From a virus (Duplodnaviria; Caudoviricetes), in the IMG/VR virus record IMGVR_UViG_3300035517_000383, positions 32,001-96,000 of that record: DNA of 64,000 bases, one strand, 5' to 3'. Made by a program: the position numbers and the translations under genes. Below the pieces are notes generated by a model. That model made no database searches. It saw only the letters and a program-made list of their open reading frames with translations, and had not been told where the DNA came from. Positions 1-27,770 of the stretch are shown one piece after another; the first letter of the stretch is position 1, and the number at the start of each line of letters is the position of its first letter.

Positions 1-92
1 GAACAACCAATTATCTTCGCAACCTGTGACTTAATTCCAATCTCACAGTAGAGTTCATTTATTTGTTCTGCTATTTCTGGTGTTATTTTCAT
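1..92 (-). CDS. HTH DNA-binding protein (truncated at window edge)
   Basis: ATG at 92 overlaps the TGA of the upstream ORF. MKITPEIAEQINELYCEIGIKSQVAKIIGCS resembles the two HTH units of the 47366 protein. Confidence 0.6.
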   Translation of the reverse strand, partial: MKITPEIAEQINELYCEIGIKSQVAKIIGC

Positions 93-355
93 ATAATATC
101 CTCACTTTCATCTTCCCAAATCCATATAGTTTTTCCATTTTTCTTTAAGTAAAATATATTTTTCTCAATTTTGGTGGGATAATCATCTACAAGTTTAACA
201 TAAATTTTCACGTCTCCAAGTCGCTCTAAAAACTTTTTTCTTGTAATCTTAATATTAATCTGCTTTTCCTCTCCTAGTTTATTAATAGAATAAACTACAA
301 GATTAAAAGAAAATTTCAAAGTATTTTGCAATAGGATTCTATTTACATCCATCAT
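89..355 (-). CDS. hypothetical protein
   Basis: ORF with GGAG RBS, downstream of a sigma-A-type promoter near 390-417. Confidence 0.6.
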   Translation of the reverse strand: MMDVNRILLQNTLKFSFNLVVYSINKLGEEKQINIKITRKKFLERLGDVKIYVKLVDDYPTKIEKNIFYLKKNGKTIWIWEDESEDII

Positions 356-478
356 AAAATTTGTTTTCTCCTTTTTTCTTATAATAATATTATATCATAA
401 CAAAAGAAAAAAGTCAAGATATAATCTTGACTTTAATTAATACTCTTAAGTTATAAATAATTTTTCTTATTTAAAATC

Positions 479-724
479 TTAGTTATGAATTGCCGCACTA
501 TCATCTTCAACAATCCACTTCTCTATCTTACTATAAATATCTTCCTCAGAATATACCCAAGTATCTCCAAATTCCAAGGATGCGAGTGCGCCAATAACGC
601 TTTTACCATTAACACGATAGCCATTGGTTTTAGAAACAAGTTCTACTTTACCATTAACCTGCCCGCATATGTTACAAAATTCCTTTATATCTTCGAATCC
701 AGTGAGTTCAATTTTATTATACAT
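479..724 (-). CDS. HPr-like protein lacking the His15 phosphocarrier site
   Basis: RVNGKSVIGALASL matches the HPr Ser46 motif (VNAKSIMGVLSL); 81 aa; GGAGG RBS. Confidence 0.7.
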   Translation of the reverse strand: MYNKIELTGFEDIKEFCNICGQVNGKVELVSKTNGYRVNGKSVIGALASLEFGDTWVYSEEDIYSKIEKWIVEDDSAAIHN

Positions 725-736
725 ATATAATCCTCC

Positions 737-817
737 TTAAAACAAATCAAAAAAACCTTTAAATAATGAATATAGGATATAGAATACCAGACCCAAAATA
801 ACTAGAGTCCAAAGCAT
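737..817 (-). CDS. 26-aa single-TM micropeptide
   Basis: GGAGG RBS then MLWTLVILGLVFYILYSLFKGFFDLF*, directly after a promoter near 850-877. Confidence 0.5.
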   Translation of the reverse strand: MLWTLVILGLVFYILYSLFKGFFDLF

Positions 818-898
818 TAAGAATCCTCCTTTCTTTTAATCTATAATTATTATACCATAGACTTAAGAAAAAGTCAAACTATAATATTAAATTGGAAA

Positions 899-1939
899 TT
901 AGCCTCCAGCTTTTGAATTATACCCATATTCCATGGCTTTATAAAAATTAATCCAATATTTTTCTTTTTCAGCTTGTTCTTCTTTAGAACATACTTCTAC
1001 TATTTCAAAAGAGAAATTTTCTATACCCTCAGAAAACATTGCATCATAAATTTTTCCACTAATTCTATCAATATTACAGCCACGTTTAATATGCTCAATC
1101 CATCTTTTCTTAAAATTTACAGTTCTACCTACATACACTTTTTCATTGGTAATATTAGTAATCTTGTAAATTCCACCACAATCTTTTTTATCACCTAAAA
1201 TTCTATCAAACAATTCATTAGTTTTAGTTTTATAGTAAACTTCATAAAGAATTTTATAAAGAGCTTCTGGTTTTGAAAATTCAAGTGCTAAATTTTTTAG
1301 TTTATAGATGTCTTGCTGCGCCGCCGAGTCAATTTTTATGTGATAAAAATCACGTTGCTGACGAATTTCTTCATCTTGTTTAAAGCGAGCAATAATTTTC
1401 TTTTGTTTATCTTCATATTCTTGAATTTCTTTTTCAAGAGTCTCCCTTTGTAAATTTATTTGCTCGCTAAATTGAAAAAAATTTTCTTTTATTTTATCTT
1501 CTTCATCTTTAAAAGAAGCTTGTAATTGATTTAAACTTTTTTGATATTTATCTCTTTCCTCATAAAGAGCGTTAGTTAATTTAGATTGACGCTTAATTTC
1601 TTCGTCTTTATCCATTTGTTCATAATTTTTTCTAGTAGTGAGATAATTTTCTTCTAATTTCTCTAATTTTCTTTGATATCTTTGTTCTTCAATATTACAC
1701 TTATTTTGTAATTCGTTGGCTTGTTCTCGTAAAGAAGAAATTTTCTCTTCAACTTCTTTTGAGATTTCTTTTTCTAAGCTGTCCTTTTTCTTAGTTAAAT
1801 CTTTGGCTATTTTTTCTTGTTCTTTAGAAAAGTTTCCTTTTATTTTTTTAGAAGGAAGAAGTAGCTAACAGCAATTGAATATTGTTGCACCTAAGCCGGC
1901 GCAAAACAAACAAATTAATATTAATTTAATTGTACTCAT
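899..1939 (-). CDS. N-terminal TM + coiled coil + C-terminal GIY-YIG nuclease domain (1 in-frame TAG)
   Basis: ATG at 1939 overlaps the thyX stop (ATGA); frame is open through one TAG near 1865; GGIYKITN..VYVGRT..RWIEH is the GIY-YIG motif. Confidence 0.75.
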
Positions 1940-2622
1940 GTTTCTTCCCTCTTTGGCTTTCTGCCGCAAGAAAATTTCTCATTACAATATCCATATTCCT
2001 CACATTTAGGCTTAAATACTTTTTCTTCTTCAACTAAAAATTTCCATTCATCAGAATAAAAAGCAAGACTATCAAGAATATCATTCATAAGCTGGCGATA
2101 CTCCCAATAAGCACGAGTACACATTCTTACTCTACTCATATCAATCAAATTTCTTAAATTAGTTCTATAAACAATTTTTGTTTCCATAGCAAGCGGCAAC
2201 ATCATACTAATATCTTCTTTTGGAATATCTAAGTCCTTAAGAATATTAATACTTTTTGAAATTTGTTCCATAGTATTCTGATAAATTATCGCCGCCTCAT
2301 CGCATTTTTTTATAGAAGGTGGTGTTATATAAGAAAAATTATCATTTAAAACATAACGAGTAGATTCTTGAAGAAATGTCATTAATCCCCCTATATGTCT
2401 TGTAAACTCACGAATTACTCTTGCAGAATACCCTGAAATTTCCATATAAATTTGGGGATATTCGAGAACCCTACCATGTCCATTTCTTAAACATTCAAGT
2501 CCACGTTTAAAATTCTTTTCATGGTCTTTGGTGTCTGCATTCCAACATGAGCCTGCCATTTCACCGCACATTGTTAATGGAATATCTGTTGTATCTGTTA
2601 AAATTTTTACTCTCTTTCCCAC
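1936..2622 (-). CDS. thyX: FAD-dependent thymidylate synthase
   Basis: GHGRVLE and EFTRH...QESTRY (RHRX7-8SXR-like) motifs, TNLRNL, AYWEYR. Confidence 0.9.
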   Translation of the reverse strand: MGKRVKILTDTTDIPLTMCGEMAGSCWNADTKDHEKNFKRGLECLRNGHGRVLEYPQIYMEISGYSARVIREFTRHIGGLMTFLQESTRYVLNDNFSYITPPSIKKCDEAAIIYQNTMEQISKSINILKDLDIPKEDISMMLPLAMETKIVYRTNLRNLIDMSRVRMCTRAYWEYRQLMNDILDSLAFYSDEWKFLVEEEKVFKPKCEEYGYCNEKFSCGRKPKREET

Positions 2623-3162
2623 TTACTCCTCCTCCATTTTTTCATATGTTATCATAAAATTAATCATAGTTGGAATATAATTATACTCTATAGGACTATA
2701 TCCCCATTCATCAATACTAATACTTAATGTTCTATTTTTAAACGAGGTTTTACCTATATCAACTAAACTTCGAGGTGCCGCAACATACCCCTGAGATACT
2801 AATGCTTTATAATTATCTTTGTTACTTAAAATTACAATACGCTGTTCAGTTCCTTCAATTTCTCCTCTAACATAACCATTAATACAATATATCCCACTTA
2901 TTCCTAAATTAAAATATTCTTCTCTTGTAAATTTTGATTCATTTTCTTTAAAAGTAATTAACTTTATTGTACCTGTAAGTTGTGAAAATAATTCCTTTGT
3001 TTCCTCAAATGAACCATGACTTATATCTCCCATTAAAAGAACATATTCATCATTTGTAATAACACTTGTCCAATTATCTATAATTGATTTATTACGTTTT
3101 TCTGGAGTATCAAAATTATCATCTATTGAAAAGAATTTCGGGTCAGCAACAATATAAACCAT
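2623..3162 (-). CDS. calcineurin-like phosphoesterase, degenerate
   Basis: YIVADPKF, WTSVITNDEYVLLMGD and ISIDEWGYSPI resemble phage metallophosphoesterases, but the metal-binding His residues are missing. Confidence 0.55.
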   Translation of the reverse strand: MVYIVADPKFFSIDDNFDTPEKRNKSIIDNWTSVITNDEYVLLMGDISHGSFEETKELFSQLTGTIKLITFKENESKFTREEYFNLGISGIYCINGYVRGEIEGTEQRIVILSNKDNYKALVSQGYVAAPRSLVDIGKTSFKNRTLSISIDEWGYSPIEYNYIPTMINFMITYEKMEEE

Positions 3163-3392
3163 TTTTCTTACCTCCTATTGTTTAATTTATAATAATTATA
3201 CCATATTCTATAAAAAAAGTCAAATAAAAAGAGAGTAGTATAAACTACTCCCTTACTCGCGTGAAATTTCCCCATAATGATTATTTTCGCTTCATTTTAT
3301 TGGATTCTCTTTTTGCTTACGCAATTGATTTGCCACGTCAATTTACGCTATTTTCTTCATTATGGTTGCCAATCATAATGTTAATTTTCTTC

Positions 3393-4316
3393 TTATCCAA
3401 TATAGCAATTTACACTGACAACTCCCTGATTTTGGAATTGACAATTGCTATTATAATAGTAAAAGAAGTCTATTACTTCTGAATTGCCTGCATCACAATC
3501 ATCTAAGTAATAATATCCATTCATTTCTGGATACCCATTAATTTCTAAATAAACCTGAGTTCTATTTCCATTATAGTTATATCCATATAAATTATATAGA
3601 TAAGACGAAGCTATAGAACCCTTTATATTACCTTCTCCATAAAGACAATCTATCAATGTTCGTCCTGAACCACCTACCATTGCGCCGCCATAAGCATAGA
3701 AAGTTCCTCTTGAAAAGGTTTTAACATAAGTTAACCCACTAGAATTACTTTCAACTTGCGGCTCCTCATAAAGATTAATAATTTCAATATGAGGATTACA
3801 TTCATCACATAGCCGCGCCTCAATATCCTCTGTCGAGGTAATTTCATAGCAACTATTATCCGCCCATCGACAAGATGAATAATGAATATAATGCGTCGTT
3901 GGCTTATAAACAATAGTATTAATAGTTTCAAAAGCTACTTCATCGTTTAATTCTTCATTTTCTAATAGTATACATTCTGTTGTTTCAATTTCTTCTTGTA
4001 TATTTTCAATTGTTGTTGTTGTAACTATATTAGTCGTAATATCTGTTGTAACACCTATTTCTGTTGTAGTATTAAAAATTGTAGTAGTAATATTTGAAGT
4101 TGTAGACAAGATATTTTGTTTTGTAGTACTACTAGAAGTTATAACTGTGGTACTTATTGGGCTATTAGTCGTATAAGTAACAACACTATTTTCGCTATAG
4201 TCAATACTACTTACTATACTTTCATTTTCGGAAGCATTTACTACAAAAATAGTAAATATACCTATCATAAATAATAAAATAAAACCCCAAAAATTTCTAT
4301 AAAAAAAGTTCCTCAT
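3393..4316 (-). CDS. secreted/membrane protein: signal/TM, Thr-rich linker, Cys/His metal-binding module, C-terminal 3D-like domain
   Basis: Hydrophobic N-terminus; Thr/Ser-rich stretch; HYSSC..LCDECNP; TFY..GGSG..IAS..YYLDDCD..VIDFF resembles the 3D cell-wall hydrolase domain. Confidence 0.55.
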   Translation of the reverse strand: MRNFFYRNFWGFILLFMIGIFTIFVVNASENESIVSSIDYSENSVVTYTTNSPISTTVITSSSTTKQNILSTTSNITTTIFNTTTEIGVTTDITTNIVTTTTIENIQEEIETTECILLENEELNDEVAFETINTIVYKPTTHYIHYSSCRWADNSCYEITSTEDIEARLCDECNPHIEIINLYEEPQVESNSSGLTYVKTFSRGTFYAYGGAMVGGSGRTLIDCLYGEGNIKGSIASSYLYNLYGYNYNGNRTQVYLEINGYPEMNGYYYLDDCDAGNSEVIDFFYYYNSNCQFQNQGVVSVNCYIG

Positions 4317-4423
4317 ATTAAATTCCTCCTTAATAATAGTTCATTACTGAACTCTCTTAAGGGGAAATTCACGCATTTTAGTAGCAAAACGCTACAATAT
4401 AAAGTGTATTTTAACTTAAAATA

Positions 4424-4897
4424 TTATAGTAAAATCATATCTGGCGGGTTATCGTCATAACCAAAAAAGATAATATAGATAAGTTCATCTTTTATTCCAT
4501 ATAAATAACCTTGAATATCTTGTTTCTTATCTTTAAAAATTTTACAATAAATATTGTCTGAATTAACCAGTGAATTAATTTCATCTTCTGCCGCCGCTAT
4601 ATCTTCTGAATAGCTTAAATAATTTATTGCATTATTAAAAATATCAAATGGCGCAGATAGTCCAATCTCCTTACCATATTGTAGAATCGGAGCATTACTA
4701 CACATAGAAATTTTATATTGACCCATATTAGAAATATTTTTCTTTATATCGGGTAAAATGGAAGTGTTAAAAATCACTTGTCTTAAAGTTCTATTAGGAT
4801 AAAACATTTTAACTCTCATATAATTTAACCAAAAATGAACTCTTCCATCTATTTCTATTTGAGTATTTTCATCTTGATATATTAAATAATTCTCCAT
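4424..4897 (-). CDS. hypothetical protein
   Basis: 157-aa ORF coupled to the helicase stop. Confidence 0.6.
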   Translation of the reverse strand: MENYLIYQDENTQIEIDGRVHFWLNYMRVKMFYPNRTLRQVIFNTSILPDIKKNISNMGQYKISMCSNAPILQYGKEIGLSAPFDIFNNAINYLSYSEDIAAAEDEINSLVNSDNIYCKIFKDKKQDIQGYLYGIKDELIYIIFFGYDDNPPDMILL

Positions 4898-7068
4898 TAA
4901 AATTTAATCACCTTTCTATCTGACTTATCAAATAAATTTCCTGCCTTTGCCGACGGCGGCATAGACTTACCAAAAGAACGCTTTGCAATTGTAGGACACC
5001 AATACAAAGATTGCTCTGCTCGTGTCGCCGCAACATAAGCTATTCTTCTTTCTTCTTCACTATAAACTCGTGCACCTACTACAATTACATTTTTAAATTG
5101 TTCTCCTTTCGCAGAATGAATTGTTAAAATTTTAACTCTATTAGTTGCCATAAGAGCTTTTAATTCAAAATTATCTAAGTCTCCTTTTTTAAAAGTTACG
5201 TTAGGAATATCCCTTTTATCCAATGCTTGCTGTGCGGCTTCAATCTCGTTGTTAGTTCTGGTTAAGATAGCCCAGTTTCCCCAATCACCAGACCATTCTA
5301 ACTCTTCTAAAGCGTCTATAAAGCCACATTCCTCAATAAGTCCATTTTTTGTTTTTATTGGAATAGTATGAGGACTTAATTGTTCGGAATTATTAAGAAA
5401 ATTTTCTGCAAAAGTTACAATATTGGGAGGGTTTCGATAATTTTCCACAAGATAATATTTTTTATAACTATCATCTAAATACATATTATGAAGATATTCG
5501 TCACTACATCCTCTAAAAGAATATATTGCTTGCCGCGAGTCGCCGCAGAAAAAGATATTCTCAGTTGGAATTTTCATTAAGAAATTATATTCTAAAGAAC
5601 TAATATCTTGACATTCATCAATAAATAGATATTTAATATTCTGATATTTAGTAGATGGTAAAGTTAAAGCTTTCTCAATAATTTTATCAAACTTTTGTCT
5701 TAAAATATATTCGGTATTATCAATATGATTTAAAGAACAAATTTTATTAGCATAAGAATGAATAGTTCCAATAAAAACTTCTTCCGCAATATTTCCTAAT
5801 CTATCTCTCATTTCTTGTGCCGCTTGATTAGTAAAGGTTATACTAACTATATCTTTTGGTTTGATGTTTTTTTCATTAATAAGATAGTTAACTCTTTCCG
5901 TAATCAAACGAGTATTATGAGTAACAATAAAATCATTCATTAAAAATAAATGTTCTTCATTATCTACATAAAAGCACGTCATTTCTTCCTCATAACCAAG
6001 AGATTCAATGTTACTAATTGTTGTTTTATCATAATTTCTATGTTGTTTTTCTTCCTTGATACTGAGGGCTATTTCTTTTTTTCTTGGTAGCCAGAATAAC
6101 TTTTCTTTTTCTAAGTTTGAAATATTAATTGATAGCTTATACGCTTCCTCTTTGGTGTATTTTTCTACTCTCGTGTCTGTTAGAATGGTGCTAATATAGC
6201 CAAGAGAGCCTAAAACTTCTTGTAAGTCAAGAATTAATTGATAACTTGTTGAACTAAAGGAAACGGGTGCTGTGAAAAGACCTTCTCTTCCTTTTATTTT
6301 GGAAATACTTCCATCAGTATCCATTAATCCACGAACTAATTGTAATCTTTGTTCTATTGAACCATATTTATATTCTTCTGGAATACACTTGTCATATGAA
6401 TAATTAATTAACTCTTTCGGCAATATATTACTATGTAGATTTTCACCATTTTGTTTAAAAGTCCAATTAAAATTATTTTTAGATAGTTTTTTTATAGTGA
6501 CATTATCTCCCAATAATTGTGCGATGTGATTTGGAATAACATCATCCTCAGAAGATAATATAAGTTGATGTTCTCGACAACAGCCATCTCCTAAAAATGC
6601 TCCAATAACATATGGGTGTATATCATATTTTTTTTCACTATAAGAAACTGCTTTAGAACAAGGAATTGAAAACTGATGTGATTTATGCCCCCTCTTATCA
6701 ATTATTTCCCATTTGTCTTTTAATATTTCATCTACAGTCATTTCTCTAAAATCATTTTTATTTTTCCATGTTCTTTTATTTACATACCAAATGTGGTCTT
6801 TAGAACATTTTGCTTTTCTTTTATCTCCAAAGGTAATTTCATAAACCTCTTTTTTACCTTGTGGATAAATTCCAAGTACCTTGGTTGGATTACCATATCT
6901 ATCAAATAGATAATCACCTATTTTAATATCCCCAACTCTCTTCTTACCTTCTGTCGTCGGAATGACAGTAGAATTTGGTAGAGCTTTGCCACTTCCAGCA
7001 GAGGCCAAACATAAAACCTTATTTTCTTCTGCAACTAAAGCTTTCTTTTGTCTTATATTCAGTTTCAT
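4897..7068 (-). CDS. UvrD/Rep-family SF1 helicase containing an intein
   Basis: ASAGSGK|T Walker A split by the intein; TFTNQAA, GTIHS, IDECQD, GDSRQAIYSFRG, NYR, TIHSAKG, YVAATRA. Confidence 0.92.
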   Translation of the reverse strand: MKLNIRQKKALVAEENKVLCLASAGSGKALPNSTVIPTTEGKKRVGDIKIGDYLFDRYGNPTKVLGIYPQGKKEVYEITFGDKRKAKCSKDHIWYVNKRTWKNKNDFREMTVDEILKDKWEIIDKRGHKSHQFSIPCSKAVSYSEKKYDIHPYVIGAFLGDGCCREHQLILSSEDDVIPNHIAQLLGDNVTIKKLSKNNFNWTFKQNGENLHSNILPKELINYSYDKCIPEEYKYGSIEQRLQLVRGLMDTDGSISKIKGREGLFTAPVSFSSTSYQLILDLQEVLGSLGYISTILTDTRVEKYTKEEAYKLSINISNLEKEKLFWLPRKKEIALSIKEEKQHRNYDKTTISNIESLGYEEEMTCFYVDNEEHLFLMNDFIVTHNTRLITERVNYLINEKNIKPKDIVSITFTNQAAQEMRDRLGNIAEEVFIGTIHSYANKICSLNHIDNTEYILRQKFDKIIEKALTLPSTKYQNIKYLFIDECQDISSLEYNFLMKIPTENIFFCGDSRQAIYSFRGCSDEYLHNMYLDDSYKKYYLVENYRNPPNIVTFAENFLNNSEQLSPHTIPIKTKNGLIEECGFIDALEELEWSGDWGNWAILTRTNNEIEAAQQALDKRDIPNVTFKKGDLDNFELKALMATNRVKILTIHSAKGEQFKNVIVVGARVYSEEERRIAYVAATRAEQSLYWCPTIAKRSFGKSMPPSAKAGNLFDKSDRKVIKF
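5914..6984 (-). mobile_element. class 3 (Ala1, WCT) intein with LAGLIDADG homing endonuclease, 357 aa
   Basis: Starts ALPNST and ends VTHN|T; Trp in block B (DHIW), Cys in block F (MTCFYV), Thr in block G; LAGLIDADG helices IGAFLGDG and RGLMDTDG. Confidence 0.88.
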
Positions 7069-7153
7069 TTTCTAAATCTCCTCTTCATTTTTCTATAATC
7101 ATATTATATCACAGTTAAAAGAAAAAGTCAAGATTTCTCTTGACTTAGTTCTC

Positions 7154-8632
7154 TTACTGACATAACCATTCTATATTTGTACAATTTTTAAAAGTATACT
7201 TAGAATTCAGTTTTTCTTCATCGGTAATATATGGATAAGAATTTTCATCCGTATAATTATATAAATAATCAGTAGTTACTATTCCATTTTCTTCAGGCTT
7301 TCTTGCCGCATAATTTCCTCCTGAACCAATATCTGGTGGTAAATATAATAAAGTAGTATTATCATCTTTATCTGGTTCTATTTGAGACTATAAATATTTT
7401 ACACTTCTTAAGTTACCACAATTTGAAAAAGCTTCTGTATCTACCACTGTTAAACTAGTACATTCTGTAAAATCTATTTTATTTAAGCCTGCTGAATTAT
7501 AAAAAGCCTTTTCTCCTATTGTTTTTAAACTAGAAGGAAATACGGTATATCCTTCCTCATTTTTATCTATATTAAGTAGAGCAAGGTTAGACATTTCTGC
7601 AAAAGCATATTTACCTATTTTTTCTAATTTAGGAGAATTAATAGTAATTTCACCACTTATACCACTTCCATAAAAAGCATAGTCACCAATTTCTTTTACA
7701 GAAGACGATATAATAATACCATCAGTAGCATTTACTATGTTTGCAAAATATTCTATAGTTTCTATTGTATCTGAAATTACAAGTTTTCTCATAGTTCCAG
7801 CAGTAAAACATAAGGTTATATCATCTTCATCATTAATAGATGGTAAAGAGGAAGGAGTTATACCGTCTCCAATACCAAGATAATATGAGGAAGATTTATA
7901 TTCATCTTGTGAAGAAAAATATTTAATATTATCTTCCGTTTCTCCATTCAACCAGAAACCAGATTCATCAGCATTATAATAAACCAATCTAGCTGAAATA
8001 CAATTGAATAAATATAATTTATTTTCTATTTCATAATAATAACCCGTTCCTAGTTCCAAAGAAAAATCTGAGCCGCCGCTATTATCTTGAAAGCCTACAA
8101 TTTCACAAGAACCAGCTATATAAACTTTATAACATTCTTCTCCTGATTCTAAAGTAATTATTTCATTATTATAATTTGTCTCTTCTTGTTTCTTTATCAA
8201 TACATAAATTCTTCCAGTTGAATCAATTTGATAATAAATAGTATTCTCATCAACTTCGTGTCCTAAATTTTTCATATATTCTCTAGCAATAGAATTTAAA
8301 GTGTCAATATCCAAAGAAGAAGTATAAGTATTATTATCATCATCTGTGTTATAAATAATAACCAAATCTTTCGAAGAAAAACCTTCTGGAAAAGAACCAT
8401 TAATTATAGTTGGAATTTCTGGAAGTTCTTCTTCTATTTTTTTAATATATTGAAGATATATTGTTTTTATATCTTCTAAATCCATATAAGTAGCTTTAAT
8501 TGTAATAGGCGTTTTTTCATTATAAGTATCATAGTTATTATTATTTGAATCTGTTACAATATTACCAGTCTTATCCGTTATATTTTTAATATCTTTTTTT
8601 TCAAAAATAATTTTATTTTCTTGAATCTTCAC
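7154..8632 (-). CDS. BspA-type leucine-rich-repeat protein, probable virion/adhesion protein (1 TAG)
   Basis: Repeats VKEIGDYAF, LEKIGKYAF, LKTIGEKAF, VDTEAFSNC; frame continues past TAG 7388 to TAA 7154. Confidence 0.75.
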
Positions 8633-8645
8633 TAAATATCACCTC

Positions 8646-10190
8646 TTAGTTAGCTAAAGAATTATTCCAACAACTAGGTATTTCACCTAAATAATATTTT
8701 GTTATTCCATTGTCTAATTTTATATCTTCATATGAGGTATTTGTATTTTTTTCAGAGCCGTATTCTGTTTTTGAAATTGCTACAGTTTTTTTATGATTAC
8801 TGCTATTCAATTCATTTAAATCTTGTGCTGTAAAACTAACGATTTTAGTATTGCTACCTGTTAATGATTCAACAGCATCATATCCATTTAATTCAAATTT
8901 AGTAATATTAATCTTGTCAACATCTACTGTAGCTTCTATTTGAGGAACAATTCTTATTGCACTATAAAATTTTTTAGAACCTTTTTCATCGGATATCTTA
9001 CTTAAAGCTTTAGCTGCACTAATATATCTATATCCATAGTCTTCTTCTCTTGCCGCCGCTAGCTTTGATAAATATTCTGATGGTTGAAAACTAATCTTCT
9101 AAGTATTACCGAGAGTAATATATGTCCAAGTCTCTTGTCCTCTATGATAAAAGAAGATATAAGGATAGTATTCTTTATTATAATAATTATGCTTATAATT
9201 TCTAGCTTTAATTATAGGAAGAATAACCAAATTTGTTTTATTATATTTATCTGCTAAGAATTTAATCCTTTCTAAAACTACATTTGCCGCAATATAACCT
9301 GTATCAAAATTATCGTATTTTTTTTCCAATGAAACTTTTGATATTGGCAATGGTATAACTTCTATGCGAACTTCTGTACAAAATTTCTAAGATTCTATTG
9401 CTGTTGCCGCCCAAAGAAATAAAATGTTTTCCCATAACTAAGAAACTTCGTCAAATAGCTTCTTAAACATATCGGGAATTGGAGCATCTTCATCAAACAA
9501 GTACCCACAAATTACTCCCAAAACCTAAGCAATAACCCAGAAATTTCTATTTAAATCTTCAATTTCAACTCTACGTGTATTTTTAGGCATTATTAAACGT
9601 ATCCACTGATTTATAGACCACTCTGAGGTATCTATAGTTTCAAGAGTTCCATCCTCTTTTCTATAATTAACTTCTTTTGGCATTCGTGTAAACTAAAGAT
9701 TTAAAGGGTTTTTAAGAACACTTAAGGTTTTATCATTTCCGCGTATTTGTATATAACTATTTAAATTAATATTTTTCCATGGTCTGACCCACTCTTCTTT
9801 AGAAAAATTTCGTCCAGCGTCAGCATTTTTTATATCAGCTTTTGTTGCCCATTCCGCACCCTGAATTACACTGTTATCATTTTCTTCTGAATTATCCAAG
9901 TACTTATAAAAATAATTTATTGCTGTTTGAACCGATTCATTCCAAAAACCGTTGACATCTGTCTTATTCTTAAAATTTTCAATATCAACCTAATCAATAT
10001 CACTGTTATTTTCAATAAATTCCATTAAACTATTTTCTTCAAATAATGATTGTATTTCTAGAGAATAGTTCTTCATGTATTGCAAAAAATTCTTCCATGC
10101 GGCCGCACGTTGTTCTGGAGATAATTTTAAAACTTCACTTAATTTATCTTTAGAATTTTCAGTAGTAAATAGTGTTTTTATACTATTCAA
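8646..10190 (-). CDS. large probable virion protein, paralogue C (514 aa, TAG=Gln)
   Basis: ORF pieces 9990, 9693 and 9099 share one frame, separated only by TAG; shares the WIRLIMP..EDLNRNFWV..LWENIL block with paralogues A and B. Confidence 0.75.
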
Positions 10191-10205
10191 ATTAACTCAC
10201 CTCCC

Positions 10206-13200
10206 TTACTTTACGTTGTCATACCAATTAACATTATAACTATTCGTATCATCATTATTCGGTATGTATAAGCCATTACTTTTAAATTTTTCCCAGTTGT
10301 AGCCACTATAATTATTATACCATACCTTATAATCTGTTCTCATAAGGTCAACATTACTAATTTCTCGCTCTGTTGCCTTTACCCATTTTCCATAATTTGT
10401 AGTACTAGGGGTGCCGCCTTGTCTAATCCAAACTCTTTGTGCAAATTCACCATTAGCTTTAAATACTGAAATTGTAACTTGGTCAGTTAGATTTAGGAAA
10501 GGATATCCGTTATTTTTAATAGCAGTATATATATCATAAGCAATTGGATTACTTTCTTTAAATGAACTAATATAAGTATCTGTCAATGTTTTTCTTAAAG
10601 CAGTATAAGAACTAATCCACCAGTCATTATTATTTAAGATATTATTAGAGTCATAAACAGTTTTAGAATTACGATTTGCAGCACTTAATTCTAAATATGT
10701 TCTTTCTGTAAAATTAAAATCTGATTCTGCATTAGTATATAAACGAGTATAAGCGCCAATACCAACATCAATGTGAGTAACGCACCAATTGTCTTTTGTA
10801 AGCCTTGTGTCTCCATCTTTTAAAAGTAATAAAAGCTGGCTGAATTGATTGCCGCCACCAGAGCCTGTTCCCTTGTAAGATGTAATTATATTTTTTCCAT
10901 CTTCATTTTTTGTTTCAAAAACAGATGCAAAAGTGGCAAAATTACTACTAGAATTAGAATTGGTATTGTAATAATCCTTATAATAAATAGAATTATAATT
11001 TCCTACCTTTAATACACATCCTGCCGCAAAACCATATGAATTTCCACCATAATTCTTTAGTTCCAGCTGCTTTAATTCTCCATTTTCAATAACCCAGTAT
11101 TTATAAATATTTGTGTCACTGCCATTTAAATTATATTGTACGCTATGGTCACCATAAAATAATTGTATTAAATTGTTTTTATGTTCAATATAATCACTAT
11201 TAATATAAGCTTCTAAAACAGCCTAATCTGATTTTTGCTAATTTGAAGTTGTATAATTTGCCTTTAAATCATCTAATGAACTAAATTCATAGCTATTGCC
11301 AAGTTGTAAAGGAATTAATTTTAAAGAAGAAAAATTTAAAGTATAGGTTAAAGTATTGGTTACTTTATAATAACTAATCAATTCTCCTTGATAATAACCC
11401 TAAGAAATATCTACTGAATTAATTTCATCATATGAATCTGGGGTAAAATTCCCGTCTTTAATTGTTAAGGTTGCATTAAGATAATTAAATTCTTTTACTA
11501 AATTTTCGTCTTTTCCTATTAACTATCTACCTATATCTTTAATATAAATAGTCAATGAATTAAGCTAAACTTCCTATTTTTCCTCAGAGTAAGAAGATTC
11601 AATTAAAATTTCTTCTCTAAGTAATCCATAAAAACGTCTAGGAGTTTCTTCATAGAAACTACTATTTAAAGGAGAATAATAATCATAAATACTTTCTTGC
11701 TCATTAATTGCATAGATTTTATTTTGTAGCGTTTCATCAGTCGCCAAATCTATATTCCAAAAAGAACCATCAGAAATCAATGGTATTTCAGTTTGCCACT
11801 TATCTGTGTTCCTGTTATATAATAATACATAAGGATAAACAGATTTACTATAATAATTCTCCTCGTAGTTATTTTCTCGAATAATTGGTAAAATACAAAG
11901 ATTGCAGTCTGTATAAGTTTTTACTAAATAATCTAATCTATTCTTTAACGTTGATAAGTCTTCCGTTTTAGTGTTATCAAAATTATCATATTTAAAAAAG
12001 GATTGAAATTCTGAATTTGGAATATATACAGCCTCTGTATGAATTTTTGAATAGTGAGGTTTTTCTATTAAAGATGCTAAATTAGCCCAAAGATATAATA
12101 TATTTTCCCACAATTGTACTACTTCACTTAATAGGTCTTCCGCCGCCTTAGCGTAGGGAGCATTATCTCCGAATAAGTAGCTGCTTACTGCCGCGAGTGT
12201 CTAACCAATAACCCAAAAATTTCTATTTAAATCTTCAACTTCAACAAATCGAGAATTTTTAGGCATAATTAAACGAATCCATTTTTCTAAAAAGTTAGAT
12301 TTCCCTTGTTCTAATTTTTTCTCTTCTTGTTGATTTAACTCATTTTTATCTATATTATTTAAAGATGAATCTAATTCTATATCTTTATAAGTCTTTGCAT
12401 TTAGCTCTTTGCTATAATCATCTTCTAATTTTTTTAGTTCTTCATGAGACATTTTTTTATAATAATCTTTTAAAACCCAAATGTTATTAGTATAATCACA
12501 AAAATATTGAGATAATAAATTCTATTTAATCTAATAGTCTAAACCAGTAATATCACTATAAGGTTGTCGAGTAAATTGTAATTCTTCTTTATTAGAAAGC
12601 ACCTCTTCAATTTTATCATTACCTCGTACTTTACTATATGAATCACCATTAACATTATACCATGGTACTACCCACGGATTTATAACTTCATAAATTGTTT
12701 TATTTTTATATTTTATAGGATATTCCCTTAAGGTTCTGTTTTCTGAAACAAAATTTTTTCCTGCGTCTGCCTCTTTTAAATCTGAAATTCTAAAAGATGT
12801 ACCATTATTATCTTCTATAGTTGTATCTATAGCTCCAAAAAGTAAATCTGAAATTACATTACCATTTTCATCTACATAAATACCAGCAGGAATTTCTTCT
12901 TTTGTATTAGGATTAACCCATTTCTAGTTTTCCCATGCCGCAATACCATCTGGGTCTATATTATTAATAAAATTTACTAAAGCTTTACTTAAAGATTCAT
13001 TCCATACATAGTCAGTCACATTTGATGTAAATCCCGTTGATGAATTTAAATCCCATTTATCAATTTCTTTTAAATAAAAGTCTTGTATTGAATCAAAAAA
13101 ACCTAATTCGCTATTATCACTATCTTTTAAATCAGCATTCTTGTCTATCGTTTTTATTAAAGAACCATTAATATCTTTCTGAGAAGTTCCATTTGTTATA

Positions 13201-13292
13201 TCAAGAATATTTAGAAGCTCTTCCCATAAAGTTTGTAATTCTTCATTAGAAAAATCATCTACAGAACTATTCATCAATTCTTCATATGTCAT
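10206..13292 (-). CDS. large probable virion protein, paralogue B (1028 aa, TAG=Gln)
   Basis: ORF pieces 12924, 12201, 11574 and 10206 share one frame; the junctions checked are TAG; same conserved block as A and C. Confidence 0.75.
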
Positions 13293-16200
13293 TCAATTTC
13301 ACCTCCCACATTTTTAGGTAAGCTTCTAAAATCAAAATTTAAACTATAGAAGCCTTCAGGACTTTCAACCCCGTATTCTTTCATATTCTCTTTTGTATAT
13401 GACCAATATGCAGTATTACCATTAAGTTTATTTATTAATTGTTTTCCACCAATAAATTCTCCAGAAATTTCACCATCTACAATTTTATATTTATAACTAC
13501 ATACATATCTGTTTTCTGGTGTCGTTAATGTAAATGCTCTGTCTATTACTGTTAAATAAAATTCTTTGGAATTAATTTTTCCTGCTTCATCAAAACTAAA
13601 AGTTTCATTGTTAGCATTACATAAAATTGTACCATTATATATTCCGCTAGTAACGGAGTCAACATACGAATTATTAGAATGAGATAAATAAATTCTAATA
13701 TCATTGGGGTTAGGATTAGTTGGTAAATACATAAGGCCAACGTTATTTTCATCTGTATAACGACCAGCAACAGTTTTATTGCTATTATTAGTATATTTAC
13801 CTGAATCTGCTAAATAGCCTAAATATTTTGATATAGGGACTCCCGGCACAGAAGTAACAGCGGGATATATACAATCCGCCTAATCTTGCCAATAGGGGTC
13901 TATAGTTATGCCCTTCCATTTTGGAGCTAAGTTAAAATAGTGCATATCTACTGTTCCATCTCTAAATTTCTTAATTATACCAAGATACTTACAAACTTCA
14001 AAAAGGTTTGATTTGTTTTTTCCATTTTCATCACCTTGGCTCTTTATAAAATATTTAAAAATTAAAATTTTTCCAGTTCCATTTTCTAATTCAACTGCTT
14101 TTTCTTCAAGTTTTTTCTTCATTGTCTCTTCATATTCATACGCTTCTGGATTATAAGCCCCCTCTTCGTACTAGTCTGTTATATCAATTCCAACAAATTC
14201 ATAACTACTACCCAAATCAATTTTTTCCAAAACCTCTGTTAAATAGCTATTACACTCTCCTAAATAATAACCCTTTTCTATCTAAATAGAAGATGCCGTT
14301 ATATCAGCTATATCTGGAAAAATTTCGTTTAAAGAAGTCGTTGAGTCTTTTTCTGAGAAATTATCATTTTGCCAAAGAGCCAAAGTGTTTGAATTATTCT
14401 AAATAAAAAGCTCTCGTGATACATCATAAAAAGCCAAAGTAAAATCTTTAATTTTTATAATTCCATCTTCATATTCAGCTTTTATTGTTGGAATTGTTCT
14501 ATCCGCCGCAAAATAATAACCTCCATTACATTGCTAACGAGTTCCCAATAATGAAGCCTAAAAATTTTGAACAGACTGATAATGGTTATTATACTTTCTA
14601 AAGCCAGAGATTCTTCTTGTTATTCTATCGTTCACATCTGATAAATCAATTTTAGTAGAATGAGAATAGCTTGTATAACAATAAGGGTCTAAACTCTCTA
14701 TTGTATCACAAAATCTTTTCCATCCATCTGGAGTATTTGAATATTCATTATTTTCACAGGCTGCTATAAATTGTAATATATAACTAGAATATATTGCATC
14801 AATTGTTGCGCCGCCGCTAGCATAATTTAATAATTCAATTTGTTTCTTAGTAAGATTTTCTGGGCTTTCCGTTTGAATTTGAGCATAATAAGAAAGCACA
14901 TTATTCGCATCTTCTTTATCTACGATGCCATTATCATTGATATCAGGGAAATATATATATTTAGAACCCTTAACTTCTGAAAAAATAGTGTAAGCAACTT
15001 TATTACTATTTCTATTATAAAAAATAACGCCGGGATAGATAACTGTATTATAATAATTATGTTTATAATTATTAAATCTAATTTCTGGAACTACAACTAA
15101 ATTACTTTCACTATACTAGTCTTTTAAATATTTTAATCTATTCCAACATTTTTCTAAGGTCTATCTTTTTGTCTATTCGTTAATGAAAGTGCTGTCATTA
15201 TCAAAATTATCAAATTTTATATAACTTTGAATTTCATCATTAGTAATAGGCATGAAAATCGTTTGAATATCTGTATATTCTTTTCTTTGTGATAGTGCGG
15301 CAGCAGCAATCCAAAGGAACAATACATTTTGCCATAACTATAAAATTTCATTTAATAAGCCTTTTAATGCTTTTATTAAAGGAGAATCTTCACTAAACAA
15401 ATAAGAACTAATGCCAGATAAAATTTGAGCAACAACCCAAAAATTTCTATCTAAATCTTCTACCTCAAAATGTCTTTGATACATTGGCATAATTAATCTT
15501 ATCCATTTTTCAAAAACATCTTGTCCATTAATTATTTTTTTAGGTATATACATTTTATTATTTTCAGTACTATACAAATACCAACCCTCTGGAGTATTTG
15601 GATATTCACTTTCGATAAAGCTAAGAACCTAAGAAGCATACAAAGCATTTCCACTTTGCTTATTTGCTATGCCACCACCATCAAGTAATAATTGCTCTTG
15701 TTTGCTTGTTAAAGAAGTTTCTTTTCCAGTACCATAATCAGCATAATATTGCTCAATTAAAGAAGCATCATTTTGAGATAAAACTCCATCCCCATCTAAA
15801 TCTGGGAATGCATAAGTAATTATAATTCCTGCTATATCTAAAATAGTTGACACAAGAATACCAGAAGCATCTTCTATTTCATTAATTTTTGCAGAAGAAA
15901 AATCTGAATCAATTAGTTGTTTCAAGTAATTATCAAAATTATCCTTAAACCACTAGATTTTAATTTTTAAAATTTCTTCATATTCCTCATCCGTAATTGA
16001 TATAGATTCTAAATTCTTTTCTATAGCTTTTTCCGCCCATGTCTTAATTTTCTATTCAATATTCTCATCACCATTATTTATATAGAAATAGGGCTTACGG
16101 GTAAATTGAAGATTTTTACTACTTTGTAATGTTGAAGAAATACTATCTTCATCTCTTACTTCTTTATAAGTTTCTAAATCTATATTAAACCATGGCCGCA

Positions 16201-16795
16201 CCCATTTACCATCTTTGTCAAAACTATTTCCAGCATTGCCATTGATGATATCCTAAATTCTAAAAGAAACTTTAGTTCCATTTGAATTAACTCCCATTGG
16301 TATTGCACCACCAGTGTCGCCAGATGAGATTTGTTTATCTGTTGGGTCATTTCCTTCAATTTTTTTAATACTATCAGGAAATAAGTGCTGCAAACAATAA
16401 GAAATTAGCTTACTAACAGACTCATTCCAATAATACTCCGATTCGCTATTAGTTCCATTTAAAGTACTGTTATCAAGATTTTCATTTTTATCTAACTTAT
16501 CAGAAGTATAATATTTTTCTATTAAATCATTTACAATATTATCTAAATCTGCTTTTTCATTAATATAATAAAAAACAGATTTATTAGACATATCGTCTTC
16601 TCGAACTCCGTAATGAGATAAATCAATTTCTTCATTTTTTAAATACTCTATTAAATACTTCCAAAAATTATCTTGTTCTTCCTCACTTAAACCTTGGAAG
16701 GCCGCACCACAGAAATTTTCATAAGTAATTTCGGGATTATCATTGCTATTAATTAATTTATCTATAAGTTCATTAAAAATATTTTGTTGACTCAT
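13289..16795 (-). CDS. large probable virion protein, paralogue A (1168 aa, TAG=Gln), with two dockerin-like inserts
   Basis: Six ORF pieces in one frame joined at TAG; PDLDGDGVLSQNDASLIEQYYA and PDINDNGIVDKEDANNVLSYYA Ca-loop/helix motifs. Confidence 0.75.
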
Positions 16796-16821
16796 TTATT
16801 ATCACCACCTGTGATATTATT

Positions 16822-17124
16822 TTAAAGAGGGTATTTAAATTTTGTTATTATTTCTTTAAAAGTGTCCCAGCCGTACATAGCGATAAAAGCAACAACAAAA
16901 CTACCTACAATTCCTAATAAAATTAATTTTAAACTAAGTGTACAAAAAATTAAAATAAAACCAATAGTTAAAATTAAAGAAATGATTATAACTAAAGCTT
17001 TAGTAGGAAAGCTATTGGGGATAATCTTTTTTAAAACCTCAGTAACAATACTAACTAAAGCTGCAAGTATTCCTATTACTCCTAAAGAAGTACTCGCTGA
17101 AATACCAAAAACAGTTTCTAACAT
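16822..17124 (-). CDS. putative holin (3 TM)
   Basis: Three hydrophobic segments; next to the endolysin; GGAGG RBS favours the ATG at 17124. Confidence 0.65.
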   Translation of the reverse strand: MLETVFGISASTSLGVIGILAALVSIVTEVLKKIIPNSFPTKALVIIISLILTIGFILIFCTLSLKLILLGIVGSFVVAFIAMYGWDTFKEIITKFKYPL

Positions 17125-17237
17125 ATTAACGCCTCCTCTGTAAAATATTGTAATAATTTCAAGAATAAAACCCATTCTTGACCTTTAATAAAAAGTAAAA
17201 AATTAAGGGAAACACTCTAATGTTCCCCTTAATATTC

Positions 17238-18470
17238 TTATTTCTTAACAATTACAGCTTGTATTTTATCAATAGGTTTACCAAAAGAACCTGCATAATC
17301 AGTATCTTGAATTACCCAATCGTAATAGTTCTTTGAAGAAGTTGTTGAAACTCTATATTTAACTTGATATTCGTCACAGTTACTTAATACCATTTGAATA
17401 GCATCAATTTGCTGACTTTTTAATCCAGCACAGCCTATGTTCCAATCATTTATATTATATTTTGTAATCCAGCTAAGCCAGCCGCCATTCTTAATATGAA
17501 CACGATATTTTAAAGTTCCTTTTGTTACTGTTGCGGCAAGTCCACTAATAGCTTTGTTTTCAACACCAGAATATCCCATATCATTTGTATCATTATAATT
17601 TGTAATTTCACTATACCATTTTCCATTAGTATATACTCGATATTTTATATCGGGAACTGTTGTGGAACTAGATGTTGAAGTTGAAGCATTATTACTATAA
17701 ACACTTTTTCCATTTTCATCAAAAACACTATATCCAGTTTTACAAGCTTTCTTTGCGTTTTCAAGAGAGGAATATGCTCCAATTTGAGAAGAAGCATCCT
17801 CCCATGCTTTTCTTACTCTATAAGTAACTGTTTTCGTTGCTGCCGCAGCGACATTTGTAGAATTATTGTTGCCTTTTAACTTATTTAATGCTGTTGAAAC
17901 ATTAGTTTTAAAAGTTGACCAATGCGGCAAAATATAGATGGGACAATTCTTCTTTGAATTCGAAGCAGTATTAAGATAATCAATTGTACCGGTTTTTCCA
18001 TCTTTAACATTAAGCCAATGAGTATGAGTAAATAAATTCTTTTCAACAGTTAAATTGTAAAGATTCAATAAATAAGCAACCAATTTAATAGCATTAGCTT
18101 CTGCTTTAGTAGAATTACCAATTACCTCAATCGCAATAGTCTTTCTATTGCCGTCACCATTTCCATCTGCAGCGTGCCAGCCAGACAAAGTTAAAGGTAA
18201 ACATTGCCAAGCACAAATATCATCTACATAAAAATGTACTCTTACATCCTTCATATTTCCATTTACAGTACTTCTTAAATATTGTTCTGCCATTGTTGTA
18301 CTTGAAGATACTGAAATAGCTTCTGTGTTATGAACCGTTACACCCAAAGGAACAGAAGGAAGATTGGCTGTTGGCATATCTATATTATTAGGATTGTGTT
18401 TAGTAAGTAAATATTCTTTTACTGTCAATCCATTTGCATTATAAGTTTTATCAGGATTTAAAAAACTCAT
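17238..18470 (-). CDS. endolysin, N-acetylmuramoyl-L-alanine amidase (Amidase_2) with C-terminal cell-wall-binding repeats
   Basis: VTVHNT, VHFYVDD, GWHAADG.GN.KTIAIE, THTHW and KNCP motifs; C-terminal YRV..W repeats. Confidence 0.9.
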   Translation of the reverse strand: MSFLNPDKTYNANGLTVKEYLLTKHNPNNIDMPTANLPSVPLGVTVHNTEAISVSSSTTMAEQYLRSTVNGNMKDVRVHFYVDDICAWQCLPLTLSGWHAADGNGDGNRKTIAIEVIGNSTKAEANAIKLVAYLLNLYNLTVEKNLFTHTHWLNVKDGKTGTIDYLNTASNSKKNCPIYILPHWSTFKTNVSTALNKLKGNNNSTNVAAAATKTVTYRVRKAWEDASSQIGAYSSLENAKKACKTGYSVFDENGKSVYSNNASTSTSSSTTVPDIKYRVYTNGKWYSEITNYNDTNDMGYSGVENKAISGLAATVTKGTLKYRVHIKNGGWLSWITKYNINDWNIGCAGLKSQQIDAIQMVLSNCDEYQVKYRVSTTSSKNYYDWVIQDTDYAGSFGKPIDKIQAVIVKK

Positions 18471-18485
18471 AATATATCAACCTCC

Positions 18486-18788
18486 TCAATCATTTAAAAT
18501 ATTTGTTAAACTTTCTATAATTCTAACTTCATTTTCAGTTAGTTCTTCTTGTGTCTAGCTAATTTCTTTTATTGCACCTAAGACAATTTTTATTTTATTT
18601 TCATGTTTTGCTTTATTATAATAAAAACCAGTGGCGGCGGCACATTCTGTAAAAACAGACGGTACTATATAACACAATGGTTCATATGTTTCAAATTTAA
18701 ACATAATAATTCCAGAAAAAATTAATACTATTAAACTTATAATAGAGGCAAAACCTAAAAGAATTTTGGATGTTTCTATAATACTCAC
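18486..18788 (-). CDS. putative holin/membrane protein (1 TAG)
   Basis: Two TM segments and FYYNKAKHENKIK; read-through of TAG 18555 to TGA 18486. Confidence 0.65.
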
Positions 18789-19216
18789 CTCTTAAAAATA
18801 GATATATAAGTCGGTTTTTGTTCTTTAAAAAATTTATATCGAATAAAATCATCTAAAAAAATAACTAAAAAACTAATTAAATACCACAAGATTGAAAAAG
18901 GTAAACATATTTGTCCCTTTATATTAAAAAGTATATTAGAATAATCCCAAACATTCCATTGTAAAATAATATTTACTATTATACCAGTAATAAATTCTGC
19001 TATAGTAATAATTATTGCACCAATTAAACTCTATATTTCTATAAACATATCCCAAGAAAACAAATTATTAATTAATCCAACTAAAACAAAACATAGTCCT
19101 CCGAGAATAAACATTGTCCAATGGGTATGTCCTCTCCATAAAATTTCTATTAAATTATAGCTTGCGCCGCCAAAGAGAAATAAAAATAAATATTTTATAA
19201 TACTTGTAACTTTCAT
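18785..19216 (-). CDS. CmpB/ABC type IV-like membrane protein (1 TAG)
   Basis: EILWRGHTHWTMFILGG, then past the TAG: ITIAEFITG..VWDYS..NIKGQICLPFS family motif. Confidence 0.75.
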
Positions 19217-20016
19217 TACATATTCACTATTTCATTAATAATATCTTGATATTCCTGCTTTAATTCAATACCATATTCAACAGCTTGAATTTCCTGAATA
19301 TCATCCATTTCTAGTATCTAATGTTTCAAAAGATTAAAATAAGTAGTATGATAAATAATCCATGCAGATGCGGCATTAACTAAACCAACAATTTCATCTG
19401 GAGTAAAAACTCTACATACTTCATCGTCTGCGTGATAAGGAACTGATTTACCTTGTGCGGCCAAAGAATAAAGAGTTATTAAATTGATTTGGTCTGTAGT
19501 ATTAAGTCTATAATGCTTTTCATTGTAGTCTATTCCATTAGTAATTGTCGTTTGACTATAAGCCATCATTTCAATAATTTTTTTATTTCTTTCTTCATCT
19601 AAAGAATCGCCGGTTGTCAATTCATCATTCTAAAGATTGTTAATTTCATTTCGAATACCAATTCTATTATACAAAAGCTCAGAAAAATCATATGGAAGTA
19701 CAGAACCTAACATATAACTTTCTATACATTTAATTACCTAATAATCTGTATTTGTTAATTGCTTTTTAAGTAATGAAGTTTTTTCATTTGTAAAACGTAT
19801 TTGTTCATTCCTTTTACTAACTTCAAGCCAAATTTCTTTATTAAGTTCTATATCCTTATCTATATCCTCAGATTTCTGAGTAATTTCATATTCATTATAT
19901 GAGTAAACATTATCTTGGGTCTAAGTAATATTCTCTCTAAAATAAATTTTATAATATTGAGGAACTAATTCTATATATTCCAAGGGTTTAACTTCTTCAC
20001 TAGAATATTTTAACAC
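19216..20016 (-). CDS. DUF4376-like tail-fibre-associated protein (several TAG)
   Basis: GTG at 20016 with GAGGTG RBS; DQINL..YHADDEVCR..TTYFNLL; frame runs to TAA 19216 through TAGs. Confidence 0.65.
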
Positions 20017-27014: not shown

Positions 27015-27770
27015 ATGATAACCAACAAAGAAATTAAAGGTCGAGCAATTTTTAGTGATGAAGAACAAATAAAAGAAAGAAGCTTGAAGATTTATACTTA
27101 TTTAGTCTGTATTAGTGGATTAAAGGATAATTATAATCATGTTCGAATTTTTCAGCAAAAAGATGTAAATCTTTCTGATATTAAAAGAACTTTTCATATG
27201 GATGAAAGAACAATTAAACGATATTGGGAAATGCTTGAATTAGAAGGTTTAATAGTATATAACGGATTTTTTAAAGAAGATTTATCACTATCTTTTAAAG
27301 AACGCTGGAAAATTAGGAATAAAAATAAAAATGTTTATTATGAGATTCCTACACCACCAAAGTTTAGAAAAATTCCAAAAGAAACTTTAATAGAATTAAA
27401 TTAGAAGAGAAATATTGATGAATTAACTTTTAAAATTTATATGACATTGATTAATTATCAAGAAGCTTGTATTAACAATGGAAAAAGTTATAAACCATTT
27501 ACCTATCAAGATTTAAGAGAATTATTAGGATACAAACTTCATGATGATATAGATAAAAAAATGGAGACATCTTTGAATCAATTACAGGGTTTAGGTTTAA
27601 TTATAATACGTCGAGATGTTATGTTAAATAAATTTGGAGTAGCGATTCCGGTATTTGTATTAGAGCAAGCTAATTTTTATACAAATTTTGATATTAAAGA
27701 TTTTGAAACTGCGGAAGAAGAAGTGATTGAAGAACCTGAAAGACAACTAATTAAGGAAAATCTTAAATAA
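27015..27770 (+). CDS. Rep-like/winged-helix DNA-binding protein (1 TAG)
   Basis: 27015 and 27441 ORFs are in frame across TAG 27402; two wHTH-like segments (ERTIKRYWEMLELEGLI; LNQLQGLGLI); directly downstream of the iterons. Confidence 0.55.

Follow-up and report, generated by a model that had tools for sequence, protein, structure and literature searches.

Can a bacteriophage carry dockerins, and what might it do with them? Cohesin-dockerin pairs are the glue of cellulosomes and amylosomes. The question is raised by a gene in a 64,000-nucleotide stretch of viral DNA (the window), bases 32001-96000 of IMG/VR record IMGVR_UViG_3300035517_000383, a genome of 152,102 bp that is classed as linear and has a CheckV completeness estimate of 92%. 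The initial annotation proposed that two Ruminococcus-type dockerin-like domains lie in a probable virion protein encoded here. Two such domains are present at the places it gave, nucleotides 15808-15581 (D1) and 14950-14720 (D2). By sequence comparison and structure modelling, these inserts are dockerin-derived and are not generic EF-hands; as judged from their residues, they are single-calcium-site variants and not full members of the dockerin family.

This gut phage has a GC content of 30%. Under the standard code, the region 13289-16795 splits into many short open reading frames (ORFs), whereas with TAG read as glutamine it is a single ORF on the minus strand. TAG is read as glutamine because the phage genome encodes a tRNA with anticodon CTA (27510-27603) and because TAG codons align with glutamines conserved in the protein family, for example Q364 of a paralogue, P0002, and the nearly invariant Q457 of the protein that carries the modules. 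The gene and its two inserts are as follows.

13289..16795, minus strand: carrier gene P0001, 1168 amino acids, 14 in-frame TAG codons, without a signal peptide
15581..15808, minus strand: dockerin-derived module D1, carrier residues 330-405, about 76 amino acids
14720..14950, minus strand: dockerin-derived module D2, carrier residues 616-692, about 76 amino acids

D1 carries a TAG codon for Q389 at 15629-15631 and is therefore broken up under code 11. D2 is free of TAG. GC content is 36% in D1, 32% in D2 and 29% in the whole gene, an excess too slight to argue for recent transfer of the modules.

The two modules are paralogous (37% identity over 84 amino acids, E = 6e-16). The first calcium loop is canonical in both, being D-L-D-G-D-G-V-L-S-Q-N-D in D1 (residues 332-343, nucleotides 15767-15802; ligands D, D, D, S, D) and D-I-N-D-N-G-I-V-D-K-E-D in D2 (residues 618-629, nucleotides 14909-14944; ligands D, N, N, D, D). 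It is followed in each by D-A-x-x-[IV]-x-x-Y-Y-A, and both modules thus display a dockerin first repeat. In D1 the order is loop 1, helix 1, a linker helix, a degenerate loop 2 with a five-residue insert, helix 3 and a tail, E-Y-P-N-T-P-E-G-W; the tail motif of D2 is E-Y-S-N-T-P-D-G-W. The second calcium loop had been described as degenerate, and alignment with 46 dockerins bears this out: both copies lack the ligands at positions 1 and 5 and have Tyr at position 12, with Y-A-S (D1) or Y-S-S (D2) at the place where dockerins have D-A-S. Neither module has, in this alignment, the duplicated F-hand with a second repeat that carries its own calcium loop. All dockerin helices are intact, including helix 3 after the decayed loop 2.

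A profile of 98 positions, built from the two sequences D1 and D2, ranks dockerins first among the proteins of the PDB, beginning with the Ruminococcus flavefaciens ScaH dockerin 8AJY (E = 6.6e-8) and followed by the group-2 dockerin 9GVB (E = 8.4e-6). Dockerins likewise come first when D1 or D2 is used alone, the best match of D2 being 8AJY (E = 2.2e-6). Against 1.84 billion representative proteins, the profile gives 714 matches at E ≤ 1e-3; of the best 123 of these 714, 121 match Pfam Dockerin_1 and 23 also touch an EF-hand model. In an alignment with 46 of the matches, the colinearity of D1 with Ruminococcus-type dockerins of two repeats extends from loop 1 through the end of helix 3.

The predicted fold is in agreement. 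The AlphaFold model of D1 has a mean predicted local distance difference test score (pLDDT) of 84.5, with low values over the degenerate second-loop stretch. It superposes best on 8AJY (Z 8.0, root mean square deviation 2.6 Å, 77 of 84 residues) and the top 14 structures are all dockerins, a result that is partly circular, as the alignment given to the model consists mostly of true dockerins. Generic EF-hands share with the modules the D-x-D-x-D-G loop followed by a helix, but they lie far below dockerins by sequence and by structure, reaching Z ≤ 4.2 against the D1 model. A generic EF-hand fold, which the initial annotation had named as an outcome that would speak against docking, is thus not what the model resembles, and the Ruminococcus-type dockerin pattern is upheld by both the profile ranking in the PDB and the predicted fold.

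Modules of the same sub-class occur on other phage proteins. The sub-class displays a leading [FY]-P-D, an L-T-x-x-Q linker and the tail Y-x-N-T-P-[ED]-G-W, and its members match the whole 98-position profile. End-to-end matches are P0119, P0139, P0151, P0152, P0159, P0192, P0221, P0229, P0121, P0124 and the Dit protein of a prophage in genome G038; both calcium loops are intact in the full-profile matches carried on phage proteins. The carriers of intact copies include Dit proteins of phrog_33 (P0119, P0139 and P0192), a head/virion structural protein of phrog_1220 (P0221) and members of phrog_1084, a phage family of unknown function (P0152 and P0159). The Dit half of P0139 has its counterparts in Dit proteins from Streptococcus and Lactobacillus phages; the dockerin half has none among 50,697 deposited phages, and in five candidate host genomes P0139 is matched through the dockerin half only. 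D1 is 39-40% identical to the Dit modules, which equals its closeness to D2. The 301 sampled genomes from the family of Ruminococcus callidus contain one full-length match, that of G038, where the copy is situated at the C-terminus of Dit inside a classical prophage module of tape-measure, Dit and Tal genes. This genome has nine cohesin matches, a multi-cohesin scaffoldin among them. The G038 Dit itself (L108:1468-2175, minus strand) comprises 235 amino acids and has at its end a two-loop dockerin with the tail N-Y-T-N-D-A-A-G-W. A parallel to dockerin-bearing Dit proteins is found in the 'evolved Dit' proteins of lactic acid bacteria phages, which carry carbohydrate-binding modules.

D1 and D2 belong to this sub-class by the [FY]-P-D, L-T-x-x-Q and tail motifs, and the modules are alike in being borne by a phage protein at a host-facing place. 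They differ in that the Dit and head modules have both calcium loops, A-T or A-S at the recognition positions, a C-terminal location and recognizable tail or head carriers, whereas the carrier here matches no known fold.

The carrier belongs to a family that has no name and no Pfam domain and occurs only on metagenome contigs of about 150-190 kb. In its members the scaffold is conserved, and two insert positions and the C-terminus vary. The scaffold core and the paralogue next to the carrier are located as follows.

14996..15514, minus strand: scaffold core between both inserts, residues 428-600, with R-L-x-x-P and E-D-L-x-R-N-F-W-V invariant in the family
10206..13292, minus strand: paralogue 2, P0002, 1028 amino acids, 10 TAG codons, 30% identity over the scaffold, without a dockerin-like insert

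P0002 holds unrelated sequence at both insert positions, and the D1 and D2 profile has no match outside P0001 among all code 15 ORFs of the 152-kb genome, so that the inserts are indeed confined to one paralogue, as first reported. About 13 of the 82 family proteins scanned bear modules at the two insert positions (P0001, P0003, the P0005-P0033 group and P0052). In all of these loop 1 is intact and loop 2 is degenerate, a pattern that speaks for selection of a module with one site and against random decay. A further member, P0073, has a two-loop version of the module.

Immediately before D1 there is a 20-residue hydrophobic helix, G-I-L-V-S-T-I-L-D-I-A-G-I-I-I-T-Y-A-F (residues 310-329; window 15809-15868, minus strand). 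It is absent from relatives that have a module at the D1 position and could be membrane-active or packed on the scaffold.

What might the modules do? It is proposed, tentatively and at somewhat less than an even chance, that the carrier serves as an adhesin on the virion surface and that its dockerin modules, with one site each, dock with calcium on host cohesins and so help adsorption. The two dockerin-derived modules would be displayed at exposed variable positions of a late, probable virion-surface protein, and each would retain one working calcium site and the three dockerin helices. Calcium-dependent docking onto cohesins of the host's cellulosome-type surface system would then help the particle adsorb. 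Dockerin homology, the predicted fold, and the recurrence of the modules both in the family and on phage tail-tip proteins support the proposal; virion location, host identity and cohesin binding are the parts of it that we infer. The group-2 dockerins of R. flavefaciens, which bind the cell-anchoring ScaE cohesin although they have a single calcium loop (PMC12270676), provide a functional precedent for one-site docking.

Several findings weigh against adsorption by cohesin docking, and they concern the modules, the carrier and the host in turn. With respect to the modules, the second calcium site is lost and the inserts are internal rather than C-terminal tags. In the hidden Markov model check suggested with the initial annotation, the Pfam gathering threshold is reached by neither module, Dockerin_1 being matched by D1 alone, at residues 332-355, with 16.2 bits against a cut-off of 22.9, and D2 having no Pfam dockerin match. 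At recognition positions 10 and 11 of loop 1, D1 has Q-N and D2 has K-E instead of the Gly-Arg of ScaE binders, and the two pairs are also unlike one another. A partner cannot be named, and D1 and D2 may have separate partners.

The lost site, the sub-threshold Pfam score and recognition positions that differ both mutually and from those of known ScaE binders also fit a different reading, that cohesin binding has been lost and that the dockerin-derived modules are now only calcium-dependent structural elements, either stabilizers of scaffold loops or a calcium switch. This is considered unlikely, though far from negligible. Most artificial single-repeat dockerins lose binding (PMC12270676), and both inserts are of low confidence within the full-length AlphaFold2 (AF2) model (pLDDT 57.6), in which the scaffold core is confidently modelled. 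On the other hand, helix 1, helix 3 and loop 1 are retained by every insert-bearing family member, natural single-loop dockerins do bind cohesin, and intact relatives of the modules occur in prophages of cohesin-rich genomes, on tail-tip proteins that are exposed. A complex prediction for D2 with a ScaC-like cohesin of R. callidus ATCC 27760, made without controls, gave 0.15 against a mark of 0.32 and speaks neither for nor against binding.

The genes around the carrier and P0002 bear on where the protein acts.

8646..10190, minus strand: ORF directly downstream of P0002, a putative third paralogue, 514 amino acids, 6 TAG codons, without a dockerin-like insert
7154..8632, minus strand: BspA-type leucine-rich-repeat protein (Pfam LRR_5, E = 1.8e-20), last gene of the co-directional block
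16822..17175, minus strand: small ORF between endolysin and carrier, 117 amino acids, phrog_18218 (function unknown)
17238..18470, minus strand: Amidase_2 endolysin, which serves as a host lead
18785..19216, minus strand: holin-like gene, PF06541

The co-directional block consists of a collagen-like fibre, a DUF4376 fibre protein, the holin-like protein, the Amidase_2 endolysin, the 117-amino-acid ORF, the large paralogues and the BspA-type protein; LRR_5 is the domain that most often accompanies dockerins among the profile matches. TAG codons number 14 in the carrier, 10 and 6 in the next ORFs, 12-28 in the tail arm genes and 0-2 in early genes. A related 182-kb gut phage has an endolysin, a 109-amino-acid ORF and then genes of 1044, 1184, 838 and 998 amino acids, and the 1044-, 1184- and 998-amino-acid products are carrier family members (P0085, P0040 and P0063). 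Gene context, TAG density and the paralogue-array pattern suggest that the carrier is probably a late protein of the virion surface.

In a second relative, the paralogue pair is found beside gyrase genes and apart from the main structural module. The scaffold fold has no usable Foldseek match in the PDB, VIA-align wide or BFVD, PHROGs contains no family for either large paralogue, and no Pfam domain is found in the scaffold; it follows that virion location is something we infer. Searches with the carrier by tblastn against the 50,697 deposited phages gave no match, the homologue P0063 gave no usable match in an ESM Atlas feature search, and the C-terminal 309 amino acids of the carrier have no homologue among proteins of 642-2044 amino acids.

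A scaffold unlike any known virion protein, encoded after the lysis cassette and not within the head-tail module, could also belong to a late protein that is not part of the particle. Freed at lysis, such a protein would find its docking sites in cohesins of the cellulosome or of cells nearby, and its role might be to mark surfaces, to block them or to act on the matrix. That the phage exports dockerins is seen from a separate secreted dockerin protein, described below. The idea is nevertheless improbable: the carrier lacks a signal peptide, its TAG density is like that of the tail genes, and an array of paralogues that vary in their inserts and have unique C-termini is a typical trait of receptor-binding proteins.

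Elsewhere in the window, at 4897-7068 on the minus strand, a UvrD-type helicase is split by an intein, which itself bears a LAGLIDADG endonuclease domain (Pfam UvrD-helicase, LAGLIDADG_3 and Intein_splicing). The N-terminal part of this helicase is wrongly labelled terminase by PHROGs.

Which host might be involved? The endolysin is 53-62% identical to prophage endolysins in Ruminococcus genomes and 60% identical to two 'Ruminococcus phage NatCom' records from human faeces. Nearly all of its 52 relatives in bacterial genomes are in Ruminococcus or Oscillospiraceae; they include three prophage copies in the complete chromosome of R. callidus ATCC 27760 and one in Ca. R. primaciens. These endolysin relatives suggest, at the level of sequence, a Ruminococcus-like host. 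A cohesin-less host, the second objection foreseen in the initial annotation, is not what the candidates present, as Pfam cohesins are found in all five candidate host genomes examined. For R. callidus, 76 dockerin proteins have been reported, together with an elaborate cellulosome most of which sequence searches miss (PMC13463774, 2026).

Three observations do not favour this host. Prediction from clustered regularly interspaced short palindromic repeat (CRISPR) spacers, which had been suggested as a check, yielded no link in a BLAST comparison of window positions 1-20000 with 151 genomes of R. callidus's family; the comparison gave similarity in the endolysin/holin region and short matches of 82-91%, and the eight short-match places that were fetched are all outside repeat arrays. 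The GC content of 30% is 10-18 points below the 40-50% of the candidate hosts. Finally, a related phage contig was binned with a low-GC 'Bacilli' metagenome-assembled genome that is otherwise without cohesin or dockerin, although this contig was probably mis-binned.

Some further features of the lysis genes and of the candidate hosts were observed. The holin-like gene and the endolysin have 65-78% nucleotide identity to prophage regions in R. callidus and in further genomes of the same family, and the last ~110 amino acids of the endolysin match solely the related low-GC phage contig. R. callidus ATCC 27760 (L064:763-1686, plus strand) and Ca. R. primaciens (L102:987-2030, minus strand) encode lipoproteins that have a Ser/Thr-rich linker and are conserved in four of the five candidate genomes. 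Their Pfam cohesin match covers model positions 2-58 only and is at the extreme C-terminus, behind a segment that resembles the remaining part of a cohesin. It may be that these lipoproteins contain a cohesin that is anchored in the membrane and circularly permuted.

A further dockerin-bearing product of the phage is a secreted protein whose dockerin is canonical. P0265 (genome 18118-18678, minus strand; L104:1477-2037) is located about 13.3 kb before the start of the window among early genes, is free of TAG and comprises 186 amino acids, with a Sec-type signal peptide, a beta-rich domain of ~95 amino acids and a C-terminal dockerin. This dockerin scores 26.3 bits with Pfam, above the cut-off, and its best PDB match is A. 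cellulolyticus DocCel5 (E = 3e-5). A word-based search among proteins of 102-326 amino acids found only P0265 itself. The protein could be a secreted decoy or cohesin blocker. The related phage contig binned with the 'Bacilli' genome, a 29.6-kb fragment (G305 contig C29), encodes a 249-amino-acid protein with a signal peptide (L114:1175-1924, plus strand), a Pfam Dockerin_1 match of 37.7 bits and a sub-threshold Cohesin match (E = 0.038) over model positions 2-139, the whole model. From these domain matches it looks like a phage-encoded, ScaC-like adaptor scaffoldin. Exported dockerins encoded by phages are plausible only in a host that bears cohesins.

The dockerin and full-length, sub-threshold cohesin matches in this signal-peptide protein, together with the finding that ruminococcal cohesins can escape sequence profiles (PMC13463774), are also compatible with a partner encoded by the phage. 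D1 and D2 would then plug into a cohesin-like domain of another phage protein for assembly or decoration of the particle. This is judged quite improbable: the phage genome, at its estimated 92% completeness, has no Pfam cohesin at E ≤ 1, although divergent ones may be present, and the cohesin-like protein of the relative is exported and would therefore miss particles that assemble in the cytoplasm.

If adsorption through host cohesins is retained as the preferred reading, it can be extended to exploitation at two levels, a speculative and rather doubtful step. Dockerin modules with a single calcium site, on a new class of virion-surface protein, would take surface cohesins as receptor, and the early, TAG-free secreted dockerin protein (in the relative, a secreted cohesin-dockerin adaptor) would occupy or rewire the cohesins of the infected cell, excluding superinfection or preventing progeny from adhering to debris.

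Two characterized kinds of dockerin come closest to D1 and D2. The ScaH (group 4) dockerin 8AJY has in common with them the motif D-A-[ST]...Y-[YA]...[ST]-G, and the fold match of D1 to it includes the extra C-terminal helix. ScaH, however, has two working calcium loops and Gly-Arg and is C-terminal in a secreted scaffoldin, whereas D1 and D2 have one loop, Q-N or K-E, and an internal position in a phage protein without a signal peptide. The group-2 dockerins (9GVB; PMC12270676) likewise have only one calcium-coordinating loop. They differ in being physically truncated and in keeping Gly-Arg; D1 and D2 have the full three-helix length with a decayed loop 2 and are without Gly-Arg.

Full-text literature searches found no paper on dockerins that are borne by phage particles or that serve as receptor-binding devices or in host attachment, in line with the earlier remark that no phage system of this kind had been described. 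New at this locus are the one-site degenerate form, the internal and duplicated placement and the uncharacterized carrier family, and also the co-occurrence of a secreted canonical dockerin in the same recoded phage. The degenerate state of the modules and the uncharacterized carrier protein temper the value of the locus. If D1 and D2 do bind host cohesins, they would be a second natural case of a working single-calcium-site dockerin and would help to assign hosts to large recoded gut phages for which none is in culture. The fibre-degrading machinery of gut and rumen Ruminococcus would then double as a phage receptor, and phage pressure would be tied to the marked divergence that ruminococcal cohesins and dockerins show in sequence.

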